64,000 bases of DNA from Mobula hypostoma (lineage: Eukaryota): assembly GCF_963921235.1 (NCBI RefSeq), contig NC_086097.1, positions 72,914,001 to 72,978,000 on the forward strand, in the 5' to 3' direction. The notes beneath the pieces are model-generated. The model made no database searches. It was given only the letters and a program-made list of their open reading frames with translations, and was not told the origin of the DNA. Position 1 is the first letter of the stretch, and each line of letters begins with the position of its first letter. Of this stretch, positions 11,951 through 51,258 are shown piece by piece. Position numbers and translations under genes: made by a program.

Positions 11951-12131
11951 CCCACTTTCAGGTGCGGGCAGCGGAGTGCGCGGGAGCAGAGTGCTGGGCT
12001 TTGGCTCAGTGGGCTTCGGTGTAAGGGGGTCTTCGGTGAGAGGTAATCAGTCAACCTGAGTACGTGCTGAGGAAAAAAGGTAAGGTCGGTAGGTACTTCT
12101 TCATTTATTCTGATTAATCTGGGATCAGGTA

Positions 12132-13073
12132 ATGGGGGAGATAGTTAGAGCAGTGGTGTGCTCCGTATGCAGTATGTGGGAGGTCAGGGTCAACGCAGTT
12201 GTCCCTGATAACTACACCTGCAGAAGGTGCATCCAGCTGCAGCTCCTATCAGAGCGAGTTATGGAATTGGAGCTGGAGCTGGATGAACTACGGATCATTC
12301 GGGAGGCAGAGACAGAGATAGATAAGAGTTATCGGGAGGTAGTCACACCGAAAAGACAGGAGGTAGGCAACTGGGTGACTGTCGGGAGATGGAGGGGGAG
12401 CAGGCAGAGAGAGCAGAGCACCCCTGTGGCCATTCCCATCAACAATAAGTATACCGTTTTGGACACTGTTGGTGGGGTTGACCTACCAGGAACAAGTTGC
12501 AGTGGTCCTGTCTCTGGCACTGAGGTTGGACCCTCGACTCAGAAGGGGAGGAGGGAAGAGAGGACAGCGGTAGTGATAGGAGATTCTATAGTCAGGGGGG
12601 CAGATAGGAGATTTTGTGGGGGAGATCGGGAGTCTCGGATGGTACGTTGCCTCTCTGGTGCCGGGGTCCGGGACATCTCAGATCGGGTGCAGGTTATTCT
12701 CGAGAGGGAGGGCAAGAATCCAGATGTTGTGGTCCATGTAGCGACCAATGACGTGGGTAGGAAGAGTGAGGGGGTCCTGTGTAGTGAGTTCAGGGAGTTA
12801 GGTGTGAAGTTGAAGGGCAGGACCTCCAGGGTAACAATCTCAGGATTGCTACCTGTGCCACGTGCAAGTGAGGCGAGGAACAGAAGAATTATACAGGTCA
12901 ATACGTGGCTGAGAGGATGGTGCAGGAGGGAGGGCTTCAGGTTTTTAGATAATTGGGCTTTGTTCCAGGGAAGGTGGGATCTGTTCCGACGGGACGATTT
13001 ACACTTGAACTGGAGGGGTACTAACGTTCTTGCAGGAAAGTTTGCTAGTGCTGCTTGGGGGGGTTTAAACTAA
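12132..13073 (+). CDS. CR1 ORF1p: Cys zinc finger, leucine zipper and SGNH/GDSL esterase (intact, 313 aa)
   Basis: CSVC...CRRC, heptad LSERVMELELELDEL, GDSIVRG, VHVATND and DDLHLN blocks; ATG to TAA uninterrupted. Confidence 0.93.
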   Translation: MGEIVRAVVCSVCSMWEVRVNAVVPDNYTCRRCIQLQLLSERVMELELELDELRIIREAETEIDKSYREVVTPKRQEVGNWVTVGRWRGSRQREQSTPVAIPINNKYTVLDTVGGVDLPGTSCSGPVSGTEVGPSTQKGRREERTAVVIGDSIVRGADRRFCGGDRESRMVRCLSGAGVRDISDRVQVILEREGKNPDVVVHVATNDVGRKSEGVLCSEFRELGVKLKGRTSRVTISGLLPVPRASEARNRRIIQVNTWLRGWCRREGFRFLDNWALFQGRWDLFRRDDLHLNWRGTNVLAGKFASAAWGGLN

Positions 13074-14550
13074 ATTTGCAGGGGGCAGGGATCCCGAATG
13101 TGAGAGAGGATAGCGAGAAGAAGTATAAAGGACAGGTGGGAACTACATGGTTCCGGAATATTAAGTGTGAAGTAGAGAAAGGTGAGGCGGAGAGAGTGAT
13201 AAGGAGGATACATGTGCAGAGGGATGGTCTGACGGAGCATGGAGTTAAATGTGCAGAAAGAGTAAGTAAATTTAAGAAGGACAACAAAATTCAAGGGGCG
13301 TACAGCCCGGTGAGAGTTCGGGGAGCTGGGTTATGCACAATAGGCAGCGATTTAAACAGAGAGAGGAGAAATGGGTTAAAAATTCTATATCTGAATGCAG
13401 GAAGCGTCAGAAATAAGGCGGATGAGCTTGAAGCTCAGGTGCGAATGGGTAACTATGATGTTGTTGGGATAATGGAGACATGGCTGCAGGAGGATCAGAC
13501 CTGGGAATTGAATGTACAAGGGTATACGTGCTATCGAAGGGACAGAAATGTGGGCAGAGGGGGTGGGTTGGCCCTGTTGGTGAGGAGTGAGATTCAGTCC
13601 CTTGCAAGGGGGGACATGGAATCAGGAGAAGTAGAATCAGTGTGGATAGAACTGAGGAACAGTAAGGGCAAAAAGACCCTAATAGGTGTTATCTACAGGC
13701 CCCCAAACAGTAGCATGGATATTGGGTGCAAGTTGAATAGGGAGTTAACAATGGCATGTGGCAAAGGAAATGTGGCAGTAGTTATGGGGGATTTCAACAT
13801 GCAGGTGAACTGGGAAAATCAGGTTGGTACTGAACCCCAGGATAGGGAGTTTGTAGAGTGCCTACAGGATGCATTTTTGGATTTTTGGAGCAGCTTGTAC
13901 GAGAGCCGACCAGGGATAAGGCTATTCTGGATTTAGTGTTGTGCAATGAACAGGATTTGATAAGTGATCTTGAAGTAAAGGAGCTATTAGGAGGTAGTGA
14001 CAATAATATGATAAGTTTTTATCTGCAAGTTGAGAGGGATAAGGGCAGATCAGAAGTGTCAGTATTGCAGTTGAACAAAGGAGACTATGGAGCCATGAGG
14101 GAGGAGCTGGCCAAAGTTGACTGGTCAGATATCCTAGCAGAAAAGACAGTGGAAAAGCAATGGCAGGTATTCTTGGGAATAATGCAGAAGGTACAAAATC
14201 AGTTCATCCCCCGGAGAAGGAAGGATTCAAAGGGGGGAAAGTGGCCACAGTGGTTGACAAGGGAAGTCAGAGATAGCATAGCATTAAAAAAGAAGTATAA
14301 CAGAGCTAAGGTGAGTGGGAAGACGGATGATTGGGAAATTTTTAAGGAGCAACAGAACTTAACTAAAAAGGCAATACGGGGAGAAAAAATGAGGTATGAA
14401 CGCGAGCTAGCTAGAAATATAAAGGAGGATAATAAAAGTTTTTTTAGGTATGTGAAGAGAAAGAAGATAGTTAAGAACAATGTTGGGCCCTTGAAGAATG
14501 AATTGGGAGAAATTGTTATGGGAAACAGAGAAATGGCAGACGAATTTAAT

Positions 14551-14951
14551 TTTCCACTAATGCCCCACCTCCACCTCGTACCCCATCTGTTACTTATTTT
14601 TATACACACATTCTTTCTCTCACTCTCCTTTTTCTCCCTCTGTCCCTCTGAATATACCCCTTGCCCATCCTCTGGGTTCCCCTCCTTGTCTTTCTTCCCG
14701 GACCTCCTGTCCCATGATCCTCTCGTATCCCTTTTGCCTATCACCTGTCCAGCTCTTGGCTCCATCCCTCCCCCTTCTGTCTTCTCCTATCATTTTGGAT
14801 CTCCCCCTCCCCCTCCAACTTTCAAATCCCTTACTCACTCTTCCTTCAGTTAGTCCTGATGAAGGGTCTCGGCCTGAAACGTCGACTGCACCTCTTCCTA
14901 GATATGCTGCCTGGCCTGCTGCATTCACCAGCAACTTTTATGTGTGTTGTT
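14551..14951 (+). mobile_element. Penelope-like element 3' fragment/pLTR inserted in CR1 ORF2
   Basis: 13-bp TSD aga(c/t)gaatttaat at 14538-14550 and 14952-14964; pyrimidine-rich body ending in a hammerhead core and gctgcctggcctgctg. Confidence 0.85.
14851..14888 (+). ncRNA. Minimal type I hammerhead ribozyme motif
   Basis: uAGUC-CUGAUGA-A-GGGU(CUCG)GCCU-GAAA-CG-UC/GACUg: both catalytic boxes intact, stem I AGUC/GACU, helix III reduced to palindromic ACGU; predicted cleavage after C14883. Confidence 0.75.
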
Positions 14952-16779
14952 AGATGAATTTAATAAGTACTTTGGATCTGTCTTCACTAGGGAAGACACA
15001 AGCAATCTCCCAGATGTATGGATGGGCCAAGGACATAGGGTAACAGTGGAAATGAAACAGATTGACATTAGGAAGGAAACGGTGATGAGTAGACTGATGG
15101 GACTGAAGGCTAACAAATCCCCAGGACCAGATGGTCTGCATCCTAGGGTACTAAAGGAGGTGGCTCTGGAAATTGTGGATGCATTGGTGATCATTTTCCA
15201 ATGTTCCTTAGATTCAGGATCAGTTCCTGAGGATTGGCGAATGGCTAATGTTATCCCACTTTTTAAGAAAGGAGGGAGGGAGAAAACAGAGAACTATCAC
15301 CCTGTTAGCCTAACATCAGTAGTGGGGAAGATGCTAGAGTCCATTATTAAAGATGAAATAGCGGCATATCTTGATAGCAGTGATAGGATTGGGCCGAGCC
15401 AGCATGGATTTACCAAGGGAAAATCATGCTTGACTAATCTATCAGAGTTTTTCGAGGATGTAACCAGGAAGATAGACATGGGAGATCCAATGGATGTGGT
15501 GTACCTTGACTTTCAGAAGGCATTCGATAAGGTACCACATAAGAGATTGGTGGGTAAAATCAGAGCTCATGGCATTGCGGGGAGGATATTGACATGGACA
15601 GAAAACTGGCTGGCAGATAGAAAGCAAAGGGTAGCAGTGAATGGGTGTTTCTCGGAATGGCAGGTGGTGACTAGTGGGGTGCCACAGGGCTCGGTATTGG
15701 GACCACAGCTGTTTACGATTTAAGTCAATGATTTAGAGGACGGCATTGTGAATAACATCAGCAAGTTTGCTGATGATTCTAAGCTGGGTGGCAGTGTGAC
15801 ATGTGATGAGGATGTTAGGAGAATTCAAGGTGACTTGGATAGGCTGGGTGAGTGGGCAAAAACTTGGCAGATGGCGTTTAATGTGAATAAATGTGAGGTT
15901 ATTCACTTTGGGAGCAAGAACAGGAAGGCAGATTATTATCTGAACGGTGTGGAGTTAGGTAAGGGAGAAATACAAAGAGATCTAGGAGTACTTGTTCATC
16001 AGTCTCTGAAGGTGAATGAGCAAGTGCAGCAGGCAATGAAGAAGGCTAATGGAATGTTGGCCTTTATTACAAAGGGAATTGAGTACAAGAGCAAGGAAAT
16101 CCTTTTGCATTTGTACAGGGCCCTGGTGAGACCACACCTGGAGTATTGTGTGCAGTTTTGGTCTCCAGGGTTAAGGAAGGACATCCTGGCTGTGGAGGAG
16201 GTGCAGCGTAGGTTCACTAGGTTAATTCCTGGGATGTCCGGACTGTCTTACGCAGAGAGGTTAGAGAGACTGAGCTTGTACACGCTGGAATTAAGGAGAT
16301 TGAGGGGGAATCTGATTGAGACATATAAGATTACTAAGGGATTGGACAAGATAGAGGTAGGAAATATATTCCAGATGCTGGGAGAGTCCAGTACCAGAGG
16401 GCATGGTTTAAGAATAAGGGGTAGGCCATTTAGGACAGAGTTGAGGAGTAACTTCTTCTCCCAGAGAGTTGTGGAGGTGTGGAACGCGCTGCCTCAGAAG
16501 GCAGTTGAGGCCAATTCTCTGGATGCTTTCAAGAAGGAGCTAGATAGGTATTTTATAGATAGAGGAATCAAGGGTTATGGGGACAAGGCAGGAACCGGGT
16601 ATTGATAGTAGATGATCAGCCATGATCTCAGAATGGCGGTGCAGGCTCGAAGGGCCGAATGGTCTACTTCTGCACCTATTATCTATTGTCTATTGTCTAA
16701 ATATTAATTGAATGGGGTAGCGACAGATTTAAAAAGTATCAGGGGCTTTGGGACTTTCTGATCTTTCTCGAGATCACTT

Positions 16780-18480
16780 GGGTTATTAAGCAATTGCCAA
16801 GGGCCAATAAAAAGAAGTTAGGTTTAATTGGAGCAGCCACTGTTGTAGTGGATAGAGTTAGAGTAGGGAAATGAGGCTTTGGCAAGAAGAGACTGAGGCT
16901 GGGTTGAGGTTTCTGTCAAATTTCTGATTCTTTCATTTTTAGCACGTAGCTAAAGTACTGAGATTGGAATCCAGAGCAGTGGTGTGTTCCTCTTGAGAGA
17001 TGTGATTGGCCTGGGGAAATTCCATTCTCCCTGATTGCTACATCTACAAGAAATGCACTTGAGTGCAGCTCCTTACTGACCATGTTAGGGAGCTGGAGCT
17101 GGATGACCTACAGATCATTTGGGAGAATGTGGAGTTGATAGACAGGAGTACAAAGACGCAGTCACAACTTACATTGCAGGAGGCAGGTAGCTCAGTGACT
17201 GTCCGGAGAAGGAAAGGAAATAAACAGAAAGTGCAGAGTAACCTAGGGACCATTCCCCTCAATAAGAAGTATACCACTTTGGATAGTGTTGGGGAGAACA
17301 ACGTAAAAGGGGAAAGCCTCAGCGACTAGGTCTCAGGCACTGAGTCTGTCTCCTGTTGCTCAGAATTGAAGAGGGAAGAAGAGGAGAGTGGTGGTGATAG
17401 GGAATTCAGCATAGTTTGTAGAACAAACAGGAGAACCTATGGACGTGAAAGACATTTCTGGATGGTATGTTGCCTTCCACGTGCTGGGGTCAGGGTCATT
17501 TCAGATCAGGTCCACAACATTCTTAAGAGGGTGAGGGAACAGACATAGATTGGCACCAATGATATAGGTAGGAAAAAAGATAAGGTACTAAGGAGCACAT
17601 ATTGGGACCTAGGTAGGAAGCTGAAAAGTAGGATACCAAGGGTCACCATCTCTGGGTTGCTGCTTGTATCATATGCCAGTGAGCATAAGTAGAGCTACCA
17701 GGACTTGATGTTTCAATCCCTATGGTAAGTCGGCACTCTCAATGTTGGCAGTGGGCTTGGAGTGGTGACAAGGAGGGTAGATACATCATCGGGGTCATCA
17801 GGTGGGCACCCTCCTTCTTTGATGTTTCGTTGATAAGCCCACGACATCTCCAGAGGGCTCAACGGTGCTACCTGGCATCCCAGATACACCCCCCTCAGTT
17901 CCATACCCTCCTGTCTTCATCTTGCAGCCCAGTTGTTGTCTTTCCTTTTAATCCAAATCCAGTTGCTGCTTTCTTCTGCTGCGTTTGACAAGGACTTGAT
18001 TGCTTGTTGGAGGGAGTGACCCCTCACCCCCATCTTCTTCAATAGACTGGTTGTAGATGTAGCAACGAATCCCCTGCATCCCACTTCTACAGGGAAAGAA
18101 TAGGATGATATGGCAGATGAACGTGCAAAATTGAAAAATTGCTGCAGGGAGCAGGTATCAGATTTGTGGATCAATAGAATCTCACCTGGGGAACGGATGA
18201 CCTGTACAAAAGGGATGTGTTGCACCTGAAATCAAGGGGAACCAATATCCTTGCAGTTAGATTGGCTGGAACTGTTAGGGAGGGTTTCAATCAGTTTGGC
18301 AGGGGAATGTGAATCAGGGTAATAGGTTAAAGGTTGGGGCAGCTAGTGTACAGGTAGATGCAACATGTAGAGATTGTGAGGAAGGAGAGGCAGTGGATAA
18401 AGCATAATTACAATCAGTTGGTTGGGTTGAAATGTGTCTACTCTAATGCAAAGGTTTCAGGGACATGTGTTGGCCAGACA
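16780..18480 (+). mobile_element. Old CR1 5' half (decayed ORF1 to start of endonuclease), interrupted by HERO
   Basis: QLLTDHVRELELDDLQII, IPLNKKYTTLDSVG and WMVCCLPRAGVR are homologous to ORF1 at 12132. Confidence 0.85.
17690..18096 (-). mobile_element. HERO-like (restriction-like endonuclease) non-LTR retrotransposon 3' fragment
   Basis: FPVEVGCRGFVATSTTSLLKKMGVRG...LSNAAEESSNWIWIKRKD ending in a stop at 17917, then about 230 nt of 3' UTR; the host CR1 rejoins as gagcataag|aataggatg. Confidence 0.8.
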
Positions 18481-19748: not shown

Positions 19749-22700
19749 CCGGTTTTCTGCTCTGGGTGTCAGATGTAGGATATCGGGGAGACTTCCAGCC
19801 TCCCTGATAGCCACATCTGCACCAGGTGCATTGAGCTGCAGCTCCTTAGAGACCGAGTTAGGGAACTGGAGCTGCAGCTCGATGACCTTCAGCTTGTTAG
19901 GGACAGTGAGGAGGTGATAGATAGGAGCTACAAGCAGGTGGTCACAATGAGGCCACAGAAGACAGATAAGTGGGTGACTGGCAGGAGAGGGAAAGGAGAG
20001 TGTCAGGTAGTGGAGAGCTTCCCTATGGCCAACCCCCTTAACTATAAGTACTCCATATTGAGTACTGTTGGGGGGGGGGACCTACTTGGGGGAAGCAACA
20101 GTGGCTGTGCCTCTGGCACTGAATCTGTTCCTGTGGCTCAGAAGAGTAGGGAAAGGAAAAGGATGGCAGCAATAATAGGGGACTCTGTAGTTAGGGGGAC
20201 AGATAGGCCATTCTGTAGGCACGAAAAAGAAACACAGATGGTAGTTTGCCTCCCAAATGCCAGGGTTTCTGATGTTTTTGAATATGTCCACAATATCTTT
20301 AAATGGGAAGGTCAGTAGCCAGAGGTCATGGTAGATATTGGTACCAATGACATAGGTAGAAAAAGGGAGGAGGCCCTGAAAACAGAATATAGAGAGTTAG
20401 AAAGGATGCTGAGAAGCAGAACCTCGAGGGTAGTAATCTCAGGATTGCTGCCTGTGCCATGCCACAGTGAGGATAGGAATAGAATGAGGTAGATGATAAA
20501 TACATGGCTGAAGAACTGGAGCAGGGGGCAGGGATTCAGATTCCTAGATCATTGGGACTTCTTCTGGGACAGGTGAAACCTGTACGAAAAGGACTGGTTG
20601 AACTTGAATCCGAGGGGGACCAATATCCTGGCGGGGAGGTTTGCTAATGCTATTGGGGAGGGTTTAAACAAGATTTGCAGGGGGGTGAAAACCAAAGTGA
20701 TGAGGCAGAGGATGGGGCAGTTGGCGCACAAGTACAGACAGCTTGTAGGATAGGCTGATGATAGAGCAAAGACGCACTCAGCCAGATGGTTTGAAGATGT
20801 GTCTATTTTAATGCAGGGAGTACCATAAACAAGGTGGATGAACTTCGAGTGTGGATCAATACCTGGAACTATGCCGTTGTGGCCATTACAGACACTTGGA
20901 TGTCTCAGGGGCAGGAAGGGTTGCTGAGTGCGCCAGGCTTTAGATGTTTCAAGAAGGACAGGGAGGGAGGCAAAAGAAGTGGGGGTGTGGCATTGCTAAT
21001 TAGGGATAGTGTCACGGCTGCAGAAAGGAAGGAAGTCAGGGAGGGATTATCTATTGAGCCAGTATGGGTGGAGGTCAGAAACAGGAAGGGGGCAATAACT
21101 CCACTGGGTGCTTTTTATAGACACCCCTCCCAGTAATAACAGAGACATTGAGGAGCAGTTAGGGGGCAGATTCTGTAAAGGTGCAATAATAATAACTGTT
21201 GTTGAGATGGGTGATTTTAACTTTCCTAATATTGATTGGTATCTCCTTAGCGCAAGGGATTTAGGTCGGGTGGAGTTTGTTAGGTGTGTTCAGGAAGGTT
21301 TCCTGATGCAATATATAGATAAACCAACTAGAGGAGAGGCTGTACTTGATCTGGTATTGGGAGATGAACCTGGTCAGGTGTCAGATCTCTTGGTGGGAGA
21401 GCATTTTGGAGGTAGTGACCACACCTCTATCTCCTTCACCATTGTGCTGGAGAGGATAGAAGCAGACAATTTGGTAAAACATTTAATTGGGGTAGTGGGA
21501 AATATGATGCTATTAGGCAGGAACTTGGGAGCATAAATTGGGAGCAGATGTTCTCAGGGAAATGCACATCAGAAATGTGGCAAATGTTCAGGAAACATTT
21601 GCATGGCTTTCTGCATAGGTATCTTCCATTGAGCAGAGAAAGGATGATAGGGTAAAAGAACTGTGGTGCACAAAGGATGTAGAAAATTTAGTTAAGAAGA
21701 AAAGAAAAAACTTACGAAAGGTTCAAGAAACTAGGTACTGATAGAGCTCTAGAAAATTACAGGTTTGCCAGGAAGGACCTTAAGAATGAAATTAGGAAAG
21801 CTAGAAGGGGGCATGAGAAGGCCTTGGTGAGGTTTTCTACAAGTATGTGAAGAGCAAGAGGATAAACTGTGTGAGAATAGGACCAATCAGCAGCAAGAGT
21901 GGAAACACGTGCATGGTGCCGGAGGAGGTAGCGGAGGTACTTAATGAATACTTTGGTTCAATATTCAGGGAAAAGGACCTTGGTGATTCTAGGGATGACT
22001 TACAGCAGATTGAAATGCTTGAGCATATAGGCATTAATAAAGAGGATGTACTGGAGCTTTTGAAAAGCATTAAGTTAGATAAGTCACTGAGACCGGATGA
22101 GACATACCCCAGGCTACTGTGGAAAGTGAGGGAAGAGATTGCTGAGCGTCTGGTGATGATATTTGCATCATCAATAGGGACGGGAGAAATACTGGAGGAT
22201 TAGAGTGTTGAAAATGTTGCTTCGTTATTCAAGAAAGGGAGTAGAGATAACCCAGGAAATGAGGAACCAGTGACTCTTACTTCAGTGGTGGGCAGTTTGT
22301 TGAGAGGCGTGGATTTTTGAGCATTTGGAGAGACATAATCTGGTTAGAGTTAGACAGGGATGCGTTGCCTCACCGGAATTGTTTACTATCCATAGTGAAA
22401 TGATTCTCAGAGAAATAGAAGACCTAGATGGGATAAAAATTGGAGGTGTTAACATCAACAATACAAGATATACAGATGATACCACCCTAATAGCAAGTGC
22501 TGCAGAAGATTACAAGTCCTCCTAGACAAAGTAGTACAAACAAGTGCAGATTTTGGTCCAACCGTCAACTGTAAAAGAATCCAAATATATGGTAATATCA
22601 AAACAGCAGAATACTCCCAACTGCCAATTGTACATCGGTAACCAAGAGATTGAACAAAAGACCAGCTTTAATTACCTTGGTAGCTTTGTATCACAAGATG

Positions 22701-49120: not shown

Positions 49121-51258
49121 TGTGTCACTTTATCACTGAACACTAACTGAAACATGCAAATTAAAACTTCAAACTTTACAGAGCCTCAAGACCCATGGCA
49201 GGACTGTACAGGAAGACCCACTGCGTCTTCAGTTGTTCTTCTCCAACCAGACTTCCTCTGGATTCCATCTTGCTTCCTTTTGTTCAATCCCTTCCCACTT
49301 ACTTCCATGGCTCCTCTGACACTCTTTGTCACCTAGACAGCTTATATTTACAATCCCCAATTCCTCCAGCAAGAAGTTAAACTTCTGGAGGAACTCAAAG
49401 AATCAAGTAACAACAGTGGAAGCAAAGAAATGGTCTACACTTCCAGTCTGAACTCTGCAATAGGACCCATATCCACTACCAATAAATCTTCCCAGCCCTT
49501 TCAGTATTCTGCAAGGATGCTTCGGTTTCAGGGTCTCTGGTCCACTATCCTACTTTCCCGTCTCACAACACTTTTCCATGAGCCACAGAAGATGCAACAC
49601 CTGCACTTTCACCTTTTCCCTTCCCATCGTCCTGTAACCCAAACAGTCCTTTCAGCTGAAGCAGAGATTTGTGAATGTTTCTTTCAATCATTCTACTGAA
49701 TTCAATGCTCTGCAAGGTGTTTTTCATTTGCATTAGAGAAACCAAACACAAATTGGATGACCACTTCATATCATTCGGATCATTCGGGAGACAGAGGCAG
49801 TAATAGATCGGAGTTTCAGGGAGACAGTCACCCCTAAAAGTCAGGAGACTGGTAACTGGTTGACTGTCAGGAGGGGGATGGGGAATAGACAGAATGAGCA
49901 GAGCACCCCTATGGCCGTTTCCATCAATAATAAGTATACCGTTTTGGATACTATTGGTGGCGACGACTTACCAGGGACAAGTTGCAGCGGTCACGTCTCT
50001 GGCACCAAGACTGGACCCTCAGCTCAGAAAGGAAGGAGGGAAAAGAGGAGAGCAGTAGTGATAGGGGATTCGATAATTATGGGGACAGATAAGAAGTTCT
50101 GTGAGAGAGATCGAGAACCCCAGATGGTCTGTTGCCTCCCTGGTGCCAGGGTCCGCGATATTTCGGTATTCTCGGAGAGAGGGTGAGCAGCCAGATGTCG
50201 TGGTCCATGTGGGGACCAATGACATAGATAGGAGTAGGGATGAGGTCCTGAAGAAGGAATATAGGGAGCTAGGGAAGAAGTTAAAAAGCAGGACCTCAAG
50301 GGTGGTAATCTCGGGATTGCTGCCTGTGCCACAAGACAGAGAGGGTAGGAGCAGGAAGTTATGGCAGATGAATGCATGGCTGAAGAGTTGGTGCAGGGGG
50401 CAGGGGTTCAGATTTCTGGATCATTGGGATCTCTTCTGGGGAAGGTCTGACCTGTACAAAAAGGATGGGCTGCACCTGAACTGGAAAAGGACCAATATCC
50501 TGGCGGGCAGGTTTGCTAGAGCTGTTGGGGAGGGTTTAAACTAGTTTGGCAGGGGGGTGGGAATCAGAATGTGAGTGCAGAGATTAAGGTAGAAGGACAA
50601 GGGCATGATGCTGTGTGTTCTGAGTTGGTGAGGAAGGACAGGCAGGGGACAAAACATAAAGGTAGCCAGTTAGAGGGGTTGAAATGTGTCTATTTCAACG
50701 CTAGGAGTATTAGGAATAAAGGGGATGAACTTAGAGCATGGATCAGTACGTGGAACTACGATATTGTAGCCGCTACTGAAACTTGGCTGGAGGAAGGGCA
50801 GGATTGGCTGATGCAGGTACCGGAGTTTAGGTGTTTTAAAAGGAATAGGATGGGAGGTAGAAAAACGGGGAGGTAGCATTACTGGTCAGGGGTAGTATCG
50901 TGGCTATAGAAAAGGAGGACGCTGCAGAGGGAGTGACCACTGAGTCGGTGTGGGTGGAAGTCAGAAATAGGAAGGGATCAATCACTGTGCTGGGAGTAGT
51001 CTATAGGCCCCCAAATAGCCCTCGGGACACCAAGGAACAGATAAGCAGGCAGATTTTAGAATGGTGTGGGAAATACAGGGTTGTAGTTATGGGTAATTTC
51101 AACTTCCCTCATATTGAGCGGCACCTCCTGACTGCAAAGGGGATAGATGGGGCCGAATTTGTCAGGAGTGTTCAAGAAGGATTCCTAATACAGTATATGG
51201 ACTGGCCGACAAGAGGAGAGGCCATACTGGATCTACTTCTGGGTAATGAACCTAGTCA

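Follow-up and report, generated by a model that had tools for sequence, protein, structure and literature searches.

In a 64,000-nucleotide stretch of the Mobula hypostoma genome (NCBI RefSeq assembly GCF_963921235.1, contig NC_086097.1, positions 72,914,001 to 72,978,000 of the forward strand; hereafter the window), we studied the junction between the two open reading frames (ORFs) of CR1-type long interspersed nuclear elements (LINEs). ORF1 of these elements ends in the slippery heptamer U_UUA_AAC, directly followed by its stop codon, and the endonuclease and reverse transcriptase (RT) of ORF2 lie in the −1 frame. Programmed −1 ribosomal frameshifting probably joins the two into an ORF1–ORF2 fusion. 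Such a fusion had been suggested in a first-pass annotation of the window, and comparative sequence evidence from nine groups of related elements now backs it.

Heptamer and its codons

At the group-A junction of the window, ORF1 ends in GGT TTA AAC TAA, as the first-pass annotation had reported, and TTTAAAC stands in the X_XXY_YYZ phase of the upstream ORF that marks a frameshift signal. The −1 frame is open from 13049 to 13936; it runs, as anticipated, through about 100 codons into the endonuclease and reaches the motif LNAGSV at codon 111, with no earlier Met in this copy. The further heptamers that had been listed at 20663, 33875 and 50535 are all in phase at ORF1 ends and have a G-run 10 nt downstream; the copy at 20663 has kept the heptamer and is otherwise decayed, with its stop lost (AAG) and three stops in the −1 frame. 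The bare number of TTTAAAC words on both strands of the window (23, against 12.8 ± 3.5 in shuffled sequence, with 1 of 100 shuffles reaching 23) is by itself only weakly above chance; what carries the argument is where the heptamer stands, its phase and the fixation of its codons.

Copies were gathered by ORF1-query searches of the source genome (G000) and from 800 kb of unselected stretches in addition to the window. The terminal Leu-Asn (LN) was included in some ORF1 queries and left out of others, which could bias amino acids and not synonymous codons. Foreign loci were located with a pattern 60–90 nt upstream of the junction and are thus junction-blind; 13 came from genome contigs and 15 from metagenomes, and two of these 28 (L233 and L252) were dropped as unrelated bacterial genes. 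The same pattern gave no loci in viral contigs, and searches for relatives gave none in viral contigs (one bacterial match) and none in plasmids. One locus (L246) lay too close to a contig end for clustering, and nine were discarded because they repeated another locus or were presumed to be duplicates. Clustering of the ORF1 core placed 195 of 210 junctions in nine groups, the 15 singletons standing outside the group counts: A (30 copies), A2 (2), B (58), F (3), C (31), D (25) and E (25) from the source genome, and X1 (19) and X2 (2) from foreign loci. The groups are related and not independent, and we give no single p-value for them. The 864 kb sampled at random gave only 16 junctions. A first look at the source genome (3.48 Gb) brought up about 68,000 candidate ORF1 C-termini, which are not copy numbers; many copies keep ORF1. 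L232 and L234–L244 are animal-type LINEs on contigs filed as bacterial genomes or metagenome-assembled genomes, and are probably host DNA.

The commonest codons, column by column, are TTA, AAC and TAR in all nine groups, the stop being TAA or TAG. The preceding codon is GGT in five groups and otherwise ACT, AGT, GCT, TTT or TAT, with TGT and GAT added by further lineages; among the groups it is always NNT while encoding six amino acids. Leu-Asn is therefore fixed as TTA AAC after a T, which the first-pass annotation had proposed to check, while control columns vary: where the residue is conserved, the codon varies in 33 of 34 columns, and TTA fills 3 of 48 cells in the Leu control columns. Of the 169 Leu codons in the ORFs of the window, 22 are TTA, and of the 67 Asn codons, 21 are AAC. 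Codon identity at control columns is about 45–70% among the source-genome groups and 21–52% between these and the foreign groups (5/24 to 11/21), at a tree distance of about 1.7 amino-acid changes per site. AAT would be silent in the peptides of both frames, yet AAC is kept.

The heptamer is intact in 140 of 174 grouped copies of the source genome and in 16 of 21 grouped foreign copies. An L2-type esterase, intended as a same-genome control, had no close relative in the source genome (best 42–43%), and its 20 loci served instead as a junction-blind sample, in which 14 of 21 junctions have an intact heptamer. In a group-A sample selected by the linker, a 9-nt motif is intact in 18 of 30 copies. 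The fractions 14/21 and 18/30 are about the remainder expected after 4% post-insertion decay.

The −1 frame between heptamer and endonuclease

The linkers differ in sequence and length from group to group and are, as had been noted, unalignable. Their commonest lengths from the heptamer to the endonuclease Asn are 330, 258, 201, 162, 216, 162, 147 and 132 nt, with 117 nt in L236, all multiples of three; the values for A2 and X2 rest on one of two copies each. Further lineages have linkers of 192 and 162 nt. The endonuclease motif is in the −1 phase in 127 of the 177 copies in which it was located. The −1 linker proved depleted of stops, another check that had been suggested: stops in the −1, 0 and +1 frames of modal-length copies number 2, 225 and 191 in group A (2109 codons), 5, 236 and 378 in B (3567 codons), 1, 71 and 82 in D (770 codons), 5, 57 and 114 in E (876 codons), 3, 21 and 36 in X1, and 7, 19 and 29 in C. 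An in-frame deletion of 27 nt recurs in five group-B copies. At 33875 the −1 frame had been expected to connect only if a run of seven G were six, and the extra G is indeed specific to this copy: 53 of 58 group-B copies have GGG at −1 codon 7, and 41 have an in-phase linker of 258 nt.

Upstream, the −1 frame closes 2–5 codons 5′ of the heptamer, without an ATG, in all 17 of the 20 copies fetched whose junction was located. Two natural group-B copies, L290 and L292, have an ORF1 of 311 aa and a −1 frame that is open for 1006 codons; an AUG start there would drop most of the endonuclease, because the first Met, at codon 207, lies inside its GDFN motif. The −1 frame of L296 is open for 1039 codons. 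Modal-length copies have no linker Met in 37 of 41 cases in group B and in 8 of 9 in X1, and have one at codon 19 in group A (18/19), codon 27 in D (10/14) and codon 39 in E (11/12). The −1 frames at 13064 and 50535 had been described as ATG-less, which holds for these two copies and not for their relatives; the A and D copies of the window lost the linker Met that most relatives have. No ORF2 AUG is conserved and none stands beside the ORF1 stop, the nearest in-frame ATG being at codon 19, 27 or 39, or not before 207–216. These linker ATGs lie at unrelated positions, as chance would give in linkers of 50–110 codons.

The G-run downstream

GGG is the commonest −1 codon 7 in nine of nine groups, within a G-run that starts 10 nt 3′ of the heptamer (9 nt in group C); elsewhere in the linkers GGG accounts for 12 of 32 Gly codons. 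A short conserved element about 10–11 nt 3′ of a shift site, of the type known from the virus PRRSV (porcine reproductive and respiratory syndrome), is thus present. In 14 natural copies the G-run is not part of any predicted local structure, and a two-tier G-quadruplex is predicted in two of them only (in B, and in E at another place). A canonical −1 signal, as described in the covered part of PMC3542737, combines a heptamer with a structure 5–9 nt downstream; the junctions have the heptamer and the phase, and no stem-loop or pseudoknot is predicted. Transcriptional slippage was considered for a G7 run upstream of the heptamer and rejected, the run being peculiar to groups A and A2. Groups with a preceding GGT (A, A2, D and E; 13061–13070 in the window) have tandem heptamers, an in-phase G_GGU_UUA overlapping U_UUA_AAC.

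Heptamer exchange in distant relatives

Among distant ORF1 proteins with a tail of at most 40 residues, 42 of 89 end in LN, 25–39 residues from the motif DGxHL. The residue before LN cannot be coded NNT in 1 of these 42, as compared to 16% at nearby positions (p 0.006). Nine tails terminate in QGN, which would be compatible with G_GGA_AAC, and two in SKN, which would be compatible with A_AAA_AAC. Exchange is borne out by DNA in two cases: L257 reads CAG GGA AAC, giving G_GGA_AAC, and L259 reads GGT TTT TTA, giving G_GGU_UUU and then U_UUU_UUA, with a −1 frame that is open and Met-free into the endonuclease. U_UUA_AAC, G_GGA_AAC, A_AAA_AAC and G_GGU_UUU are named among the most shift-prone heptamers in the part of PMC5009743 that was covered.

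Named ORF1 proteins ending in LN come from rays, sharks, a teleost, a frog, turtles, lizards and a snake. One protein close to a turtle ORF1 (P0102, close to P0244) changes frame after DGxHL and continues ...KSFKLGNLGRR..., with the same FKL-x-x-L-G as the −1 frame; this peptide would be an indirect sign of the DNA motif in amniotes. A sister group of esterases with the motif DGLHP (P0055, P0123, P0125, P0150, P0181, P0196 and P0198) has I, L, K, V or Q as its last residue, each of which an NNA codon can encode. NNA before TGA would give an AUGA stop–start overlap, a hint at the protein level that these elements may use coupling rather than frameshifting. Among longer proteins, a search for ORF1–ORF2 fusions gave five matches, none with an endonuclease or RT domain; gene callers would not predict a frameshift, so this absence carries no weight either way.

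Proposed mechanism

We propose that a minority of ribosomes would slip back one base at U_UUA_AAC, with tRNA-Leu and tRNA-Asn moving in tandem from UUA AAC to UUU AAA, while most would stop and release the ORF1 protein (ORF1p). The predicted product is an ORF1–linker–endonuclease–RT fusion with the junction peptide ...L-N-L..., which in group B would have 1315 aa (311 + 1004) and the transframe peptide ...EVTLNLEWLGGG..., and ORF1p should be in high excess over the fusion, as gag is over gag-pol. The necessary pause would most likely be produced jointly by the stop codon beside the heptamer and by the G-run 10 nt downstream, the latter serving as a contact site for a protein or the ribosome; we attribute it to these two because no local stem or pseudoknot is predicted. 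Given frameshifting, we put the chance of this stimulator at about even, a two-tier G-quadruplex or long-range pairing being the alternatives. The wider proposal, that a large branch of animal LINEs from vertebrates to distant hosts makes its RT as a fusion by a signal without structure, made up of the heptamer, the stop beside it and a G5 at +10 that a protein or the ribosome reads, is tentative, and we place it somewhat below even.

Observations against frameshifting and alternative explanations

Several observations weigh against frameshifting as proposed here. Local folding 3′ of the heptamer in the 14 natural copies gave z-scores from −0.56 to +1.49, with no fold in common; pseudoknots are beyond the folding method, and the region lacks C-rich partners. 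The G-block might instead pair over a long range, and the partner that most copies could share was a stretch of Cys-Leu-Pro-Gly codons about 400 nt upstream, which shows no covariation and fails in X2; the candidate was rejected as unsupported. One further lineage has a G-run of only four G (G4), and in L259 the run stands at another spacing. No canonical heptamer is in phase in L246, and the site of L258, where the −1 frame is open and Met-free, is imperfect. Of the 89 distant ORF1 tails, 47 do not end in LN, many of them fitting no heptamer, and the amniote evidence is at the protein level only. The old group C is noisy, with 12 of 24 copies in phase and the heptamer intact in 18 of 31. In group E, 13 of 25 copies are in phase, partly from one shared loss of 16 nt. 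The same loss, between two 9-nt direct repeats, is found in 9 of 32 E-type copies (including L264, L278, L280, L282, L314 and L320), and may reflect either recurrent slippage or the spread of a lineage in trans; it closes both routes to ORF2, because the frame breaks downstream of the ATG in the linker. In groups A, D and E, where most copies carry such an ATG in frame, AUG reinitiation is possible. A missing linker AUG does not force a fusion either, because L1 tolerates loss of its ORF2 AUG.

The last two points lead to the strongest of the competing explanations, in which ORF2 is made separately by termination–reinitiation or internal initiation, independently of AUG where there is none, and the TTTAAACTAR..G5 block is a reinitiation signal. 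Besides the linker ATGs of A, D and E, it draws on the stop codon directly beside the motif, on the lack of a frameshift-type structure, and on known cases: in the passages covered, L1 retrotransposes even when a different sense codon replaces its ORF2 ATG (PMC1965478) and SART1 uses stop–start coupling (PMC3708506). However, the ATGs stand at the unrelated codons 19, 27 and 39 and are absent in B and X1, and there is no stop–start overlap in the ORF2 frame. Reinitiation also does not predict in-phase slippery heptamers, a −1 frame open back to the heptamer in every group, or replacement by G_GGA_AAC or U_UUU_UUA, and we consider it unlikely. A motif kept for another reason and without any shift (double coding of LN and FKL..G, a signal for RNA packaging or reverse transcription, or a protein-binding site) appears still less probable. 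FKL-x-x-[QLR]-G is the commonest −1 peptide in nine of nine groups, and double coding alone would fix T TTA AAY. However, the −1 frame has no upstream start, so that selection on FKL requires translation; the preference for AAC over the doubly silent AAT is not explained; and relatives that end in QGN, SKN or FLGRV indicate that the esterase does not need LN.

Splicing would read the motif as a branch point followed by a 3′ splice site (...TTTGCAG/G, the slash marking the joint), the spliced RNA bringing an upstream AUG into the ORF2 frame. CAG/G does come after a short stretch rich in U in groups A, A2, D, E, X1 and X2, while TTG stands there in B and F. Among 30 group-A copies found by their linker, 28 align through the junction into ORF1 and two break off elsewhere, none joining at the putative acceptor. 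We regard splicing as very improbable. Contigs from four RNA runs, whose type was guessed, are uninformative on this point, with no GT..AG joint among the 15 listed of 61 joints. The chance that the pattern merely reflects coincidence or common descent, in groups too close for synonymous changes, is practically negligible. The groups do share ancestry, and five of the nine have the same preceding codon, which also tells against frameshifting; set against this are the variation in nearly all control columns, the synonymous identities within and between genomes, and the tree distance given above. Frameshifting at U_UUA_AAC thus remains the reading that we favor.

Elements and other features of the window

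The features are collected in Table 1. ORF1 of the group-A copy matches Pfam Lipase_GDSL_2 (PF13472, E 3.6e-11) and PDB entry 4c1b (E 1.8e-23), whose title gives 'ORF1-encoded protein' and which we take to be that of zebrafish ZfL2-1; its closest named relatives come from rays. RVT_1 (Pfam) was detected in the neighbouring group-B copy. An esterase ORF1, an ORF2 with APE-type endonuclease and RT, a short 3′ untranslated region (UTR) with a short tandem repeat, and no long terminal repeat (LTR) make up the architecture of the CR1 clade. The CR1 label follows from this architecture, the 3′ tail and the likeness of ORF1 to reptile and bird proteins, and not from an RT tree.

Table 1. Features of the group-A copy and of the other ORF1/ORF2 junctions, in window coordinates
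Feature	Position	Strand	Remarks
ORF1, group-A copy	12132–13073	+	Reading frame open 12114–13073; N-terminal Cys motif, C-terminal SGNH/GDSL esterase, end ...GGLN-stop
Slippery heptamer U_UUA_AAC	13064–13070	+	Read in ORF1 phase as third base of the Gly codon plus the codons for Leu and Asn
ORF1 stop codon	13071–13073	+	Directly 3′ of heptamer; TA also part of −1 frame Leu codon CTA
G5 run	13081–13085	+	Starts 10 nt 3′ of heptamer; candidate stimulatory element without predicted structure
−1 frame linker, ~108 codons	13070–13393	+	From predicted shift site to endonuclease Asn; unalignable between groups
APE-type endonuclease, −1 frame	13394–13936	+	Pfam Exo_endo_phos PF03372, E 5.3e-12; copy broken by frame change near domain end
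Remaining ORF2 pieces	13846–16605	+	Frame change, inserted fragment, premature stop 15721–15723
Short 3′ UTR	16606–16700	+	Ends in tail of 7-nt tandem repeats, like the tail in L290, L292 and L296
Fifth junction, decayed	18285–18291	+	TTTCAAT; absent from the first-pass list
Heptamer, decayed copy	20663–20669	+	Stop lost (AAG); three stops in −1 frame
Group-B junction	33875–33898	+	Heptamer after ACT codon, TAG, G7 run (G6 in most relatives)
Group-D junction	50535–50557	+	Heptamer, TAG, G6 run; −1 frame open 54 codons to endonuclease Asn

The fragment inserted in ORF2 of the group-A copy spans 400 bp (14551–14951) between near-identical flanks of 13 nt (14538–14550 and 14952–14964). It contains CTGATGA...GAAA at about 14856–14879, which would be the hammerhead core known from Penelope-like elements; Rfam returned no match of this kind, nor any other in the window.

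Comparison with known systems

Searches of the open full-text literature, which did not extend to the Repbase notes or to the chicken and turtle CR1 papers of 1997, brought up no report that ribosomes shift frame at the CR1 junction. CR1 is not mentioned in the searched part of PMC5009743, and the passages covered of PMC4255032, PMC2734521, PMC5633606, PMC5006619, PMC3159450 and PMC5391098 describe no frameshift at a CR1 junction. CR1 is the main repeat of bird genomes (PMC11835228). The passages covered on CR1 describe two separate ORFs and an ORF2 protein (ORF2p) of 95 kDa, and do not mention a frameshift. The elements studied here resemble chicken and turtle CR1 and zebrafish ZfL2-1 in their esterase ORF1, APE–RT ORF2 and short-repeat 3′ tail, and reptile ORF1 proteins likewise end in LN.

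With other LINEs they share a bicistronic non-LTR RNA in which ORF1 precedes an APE–RT ORF2. How such RNAs make ORF2p is described as unclear in the covered passages of PMC3708506 and PMC1965478, which report AUG-tolerant reinitiation in L1, UAAUG coupling in SART1, an ATG requirement in Zorro3, and 2A-bearing elements. Whereas all of these make a separate ORF2p, the junctions described here have no stop–start overlap and no conserved ATG, and their −1 frame overlaps ORF1 at the heptamer. A −1 shift between ORF1 and ORF2 is said to have been proposed for TRE5-A, one of the Dictyostelium elements TRE5-A and TRE3-A; it was not found in the TRE literature searched by keyword. Drosophila HeT-A is a non-LTR element whose gag needs a frameshift (PMC5009743, part covered), whereas the shift there lies within gag and joins no RT.

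If this reading holds, CR1-type LINEs use a gag-pol strategy, and their true RT protein would carry the esterase and a linker of 40–110 residues at its N-terminus. Annotating ORF2 from its first ATG would then be incorrect and, for group B, would miss the greater part of the endonuclease. The signal is about 25 nt long. Under the wider proposal it would rank, as a structure-free signal, with the most ancient and most numerous frameshift signals of animal genomes, and the lack of a pseudoknot hints that its stimulator may be of a new kind. The nearest known likeness to such a stimulator is the nsp2 frameshift of PRRSV, where nsp1beta and a poly(C)-binding protein act at CCCANCUCC, which lies some 11 nt downstream of where the shift occurs (PMC5009743, part covered); both are short unstructured elements at about the same distance from the shift site, whereas one is G-rich and the other C-rich, and the resemblance is one of spacing only. 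Synthetic G-quadruplexes can also stimulate frameshifting according to the same source. As in retroviral gag-pol and coronavirus ORF1a/1b, an in-phase X_XXY_YYZ heptamer stands at the end of an abundant 5′ ORF with the polymerase in the −1 frame, and U_UUA_AAC itself is the shift site of infectious bronchitis virus (PMC5009743 and PMC3542737, parts covered). Unlike these systems, the one described here belongs to a non-LTR element, has its stop codon directly after the heptamer and an unstructured G-run 10 nt downstream, and is predicted from sequence.

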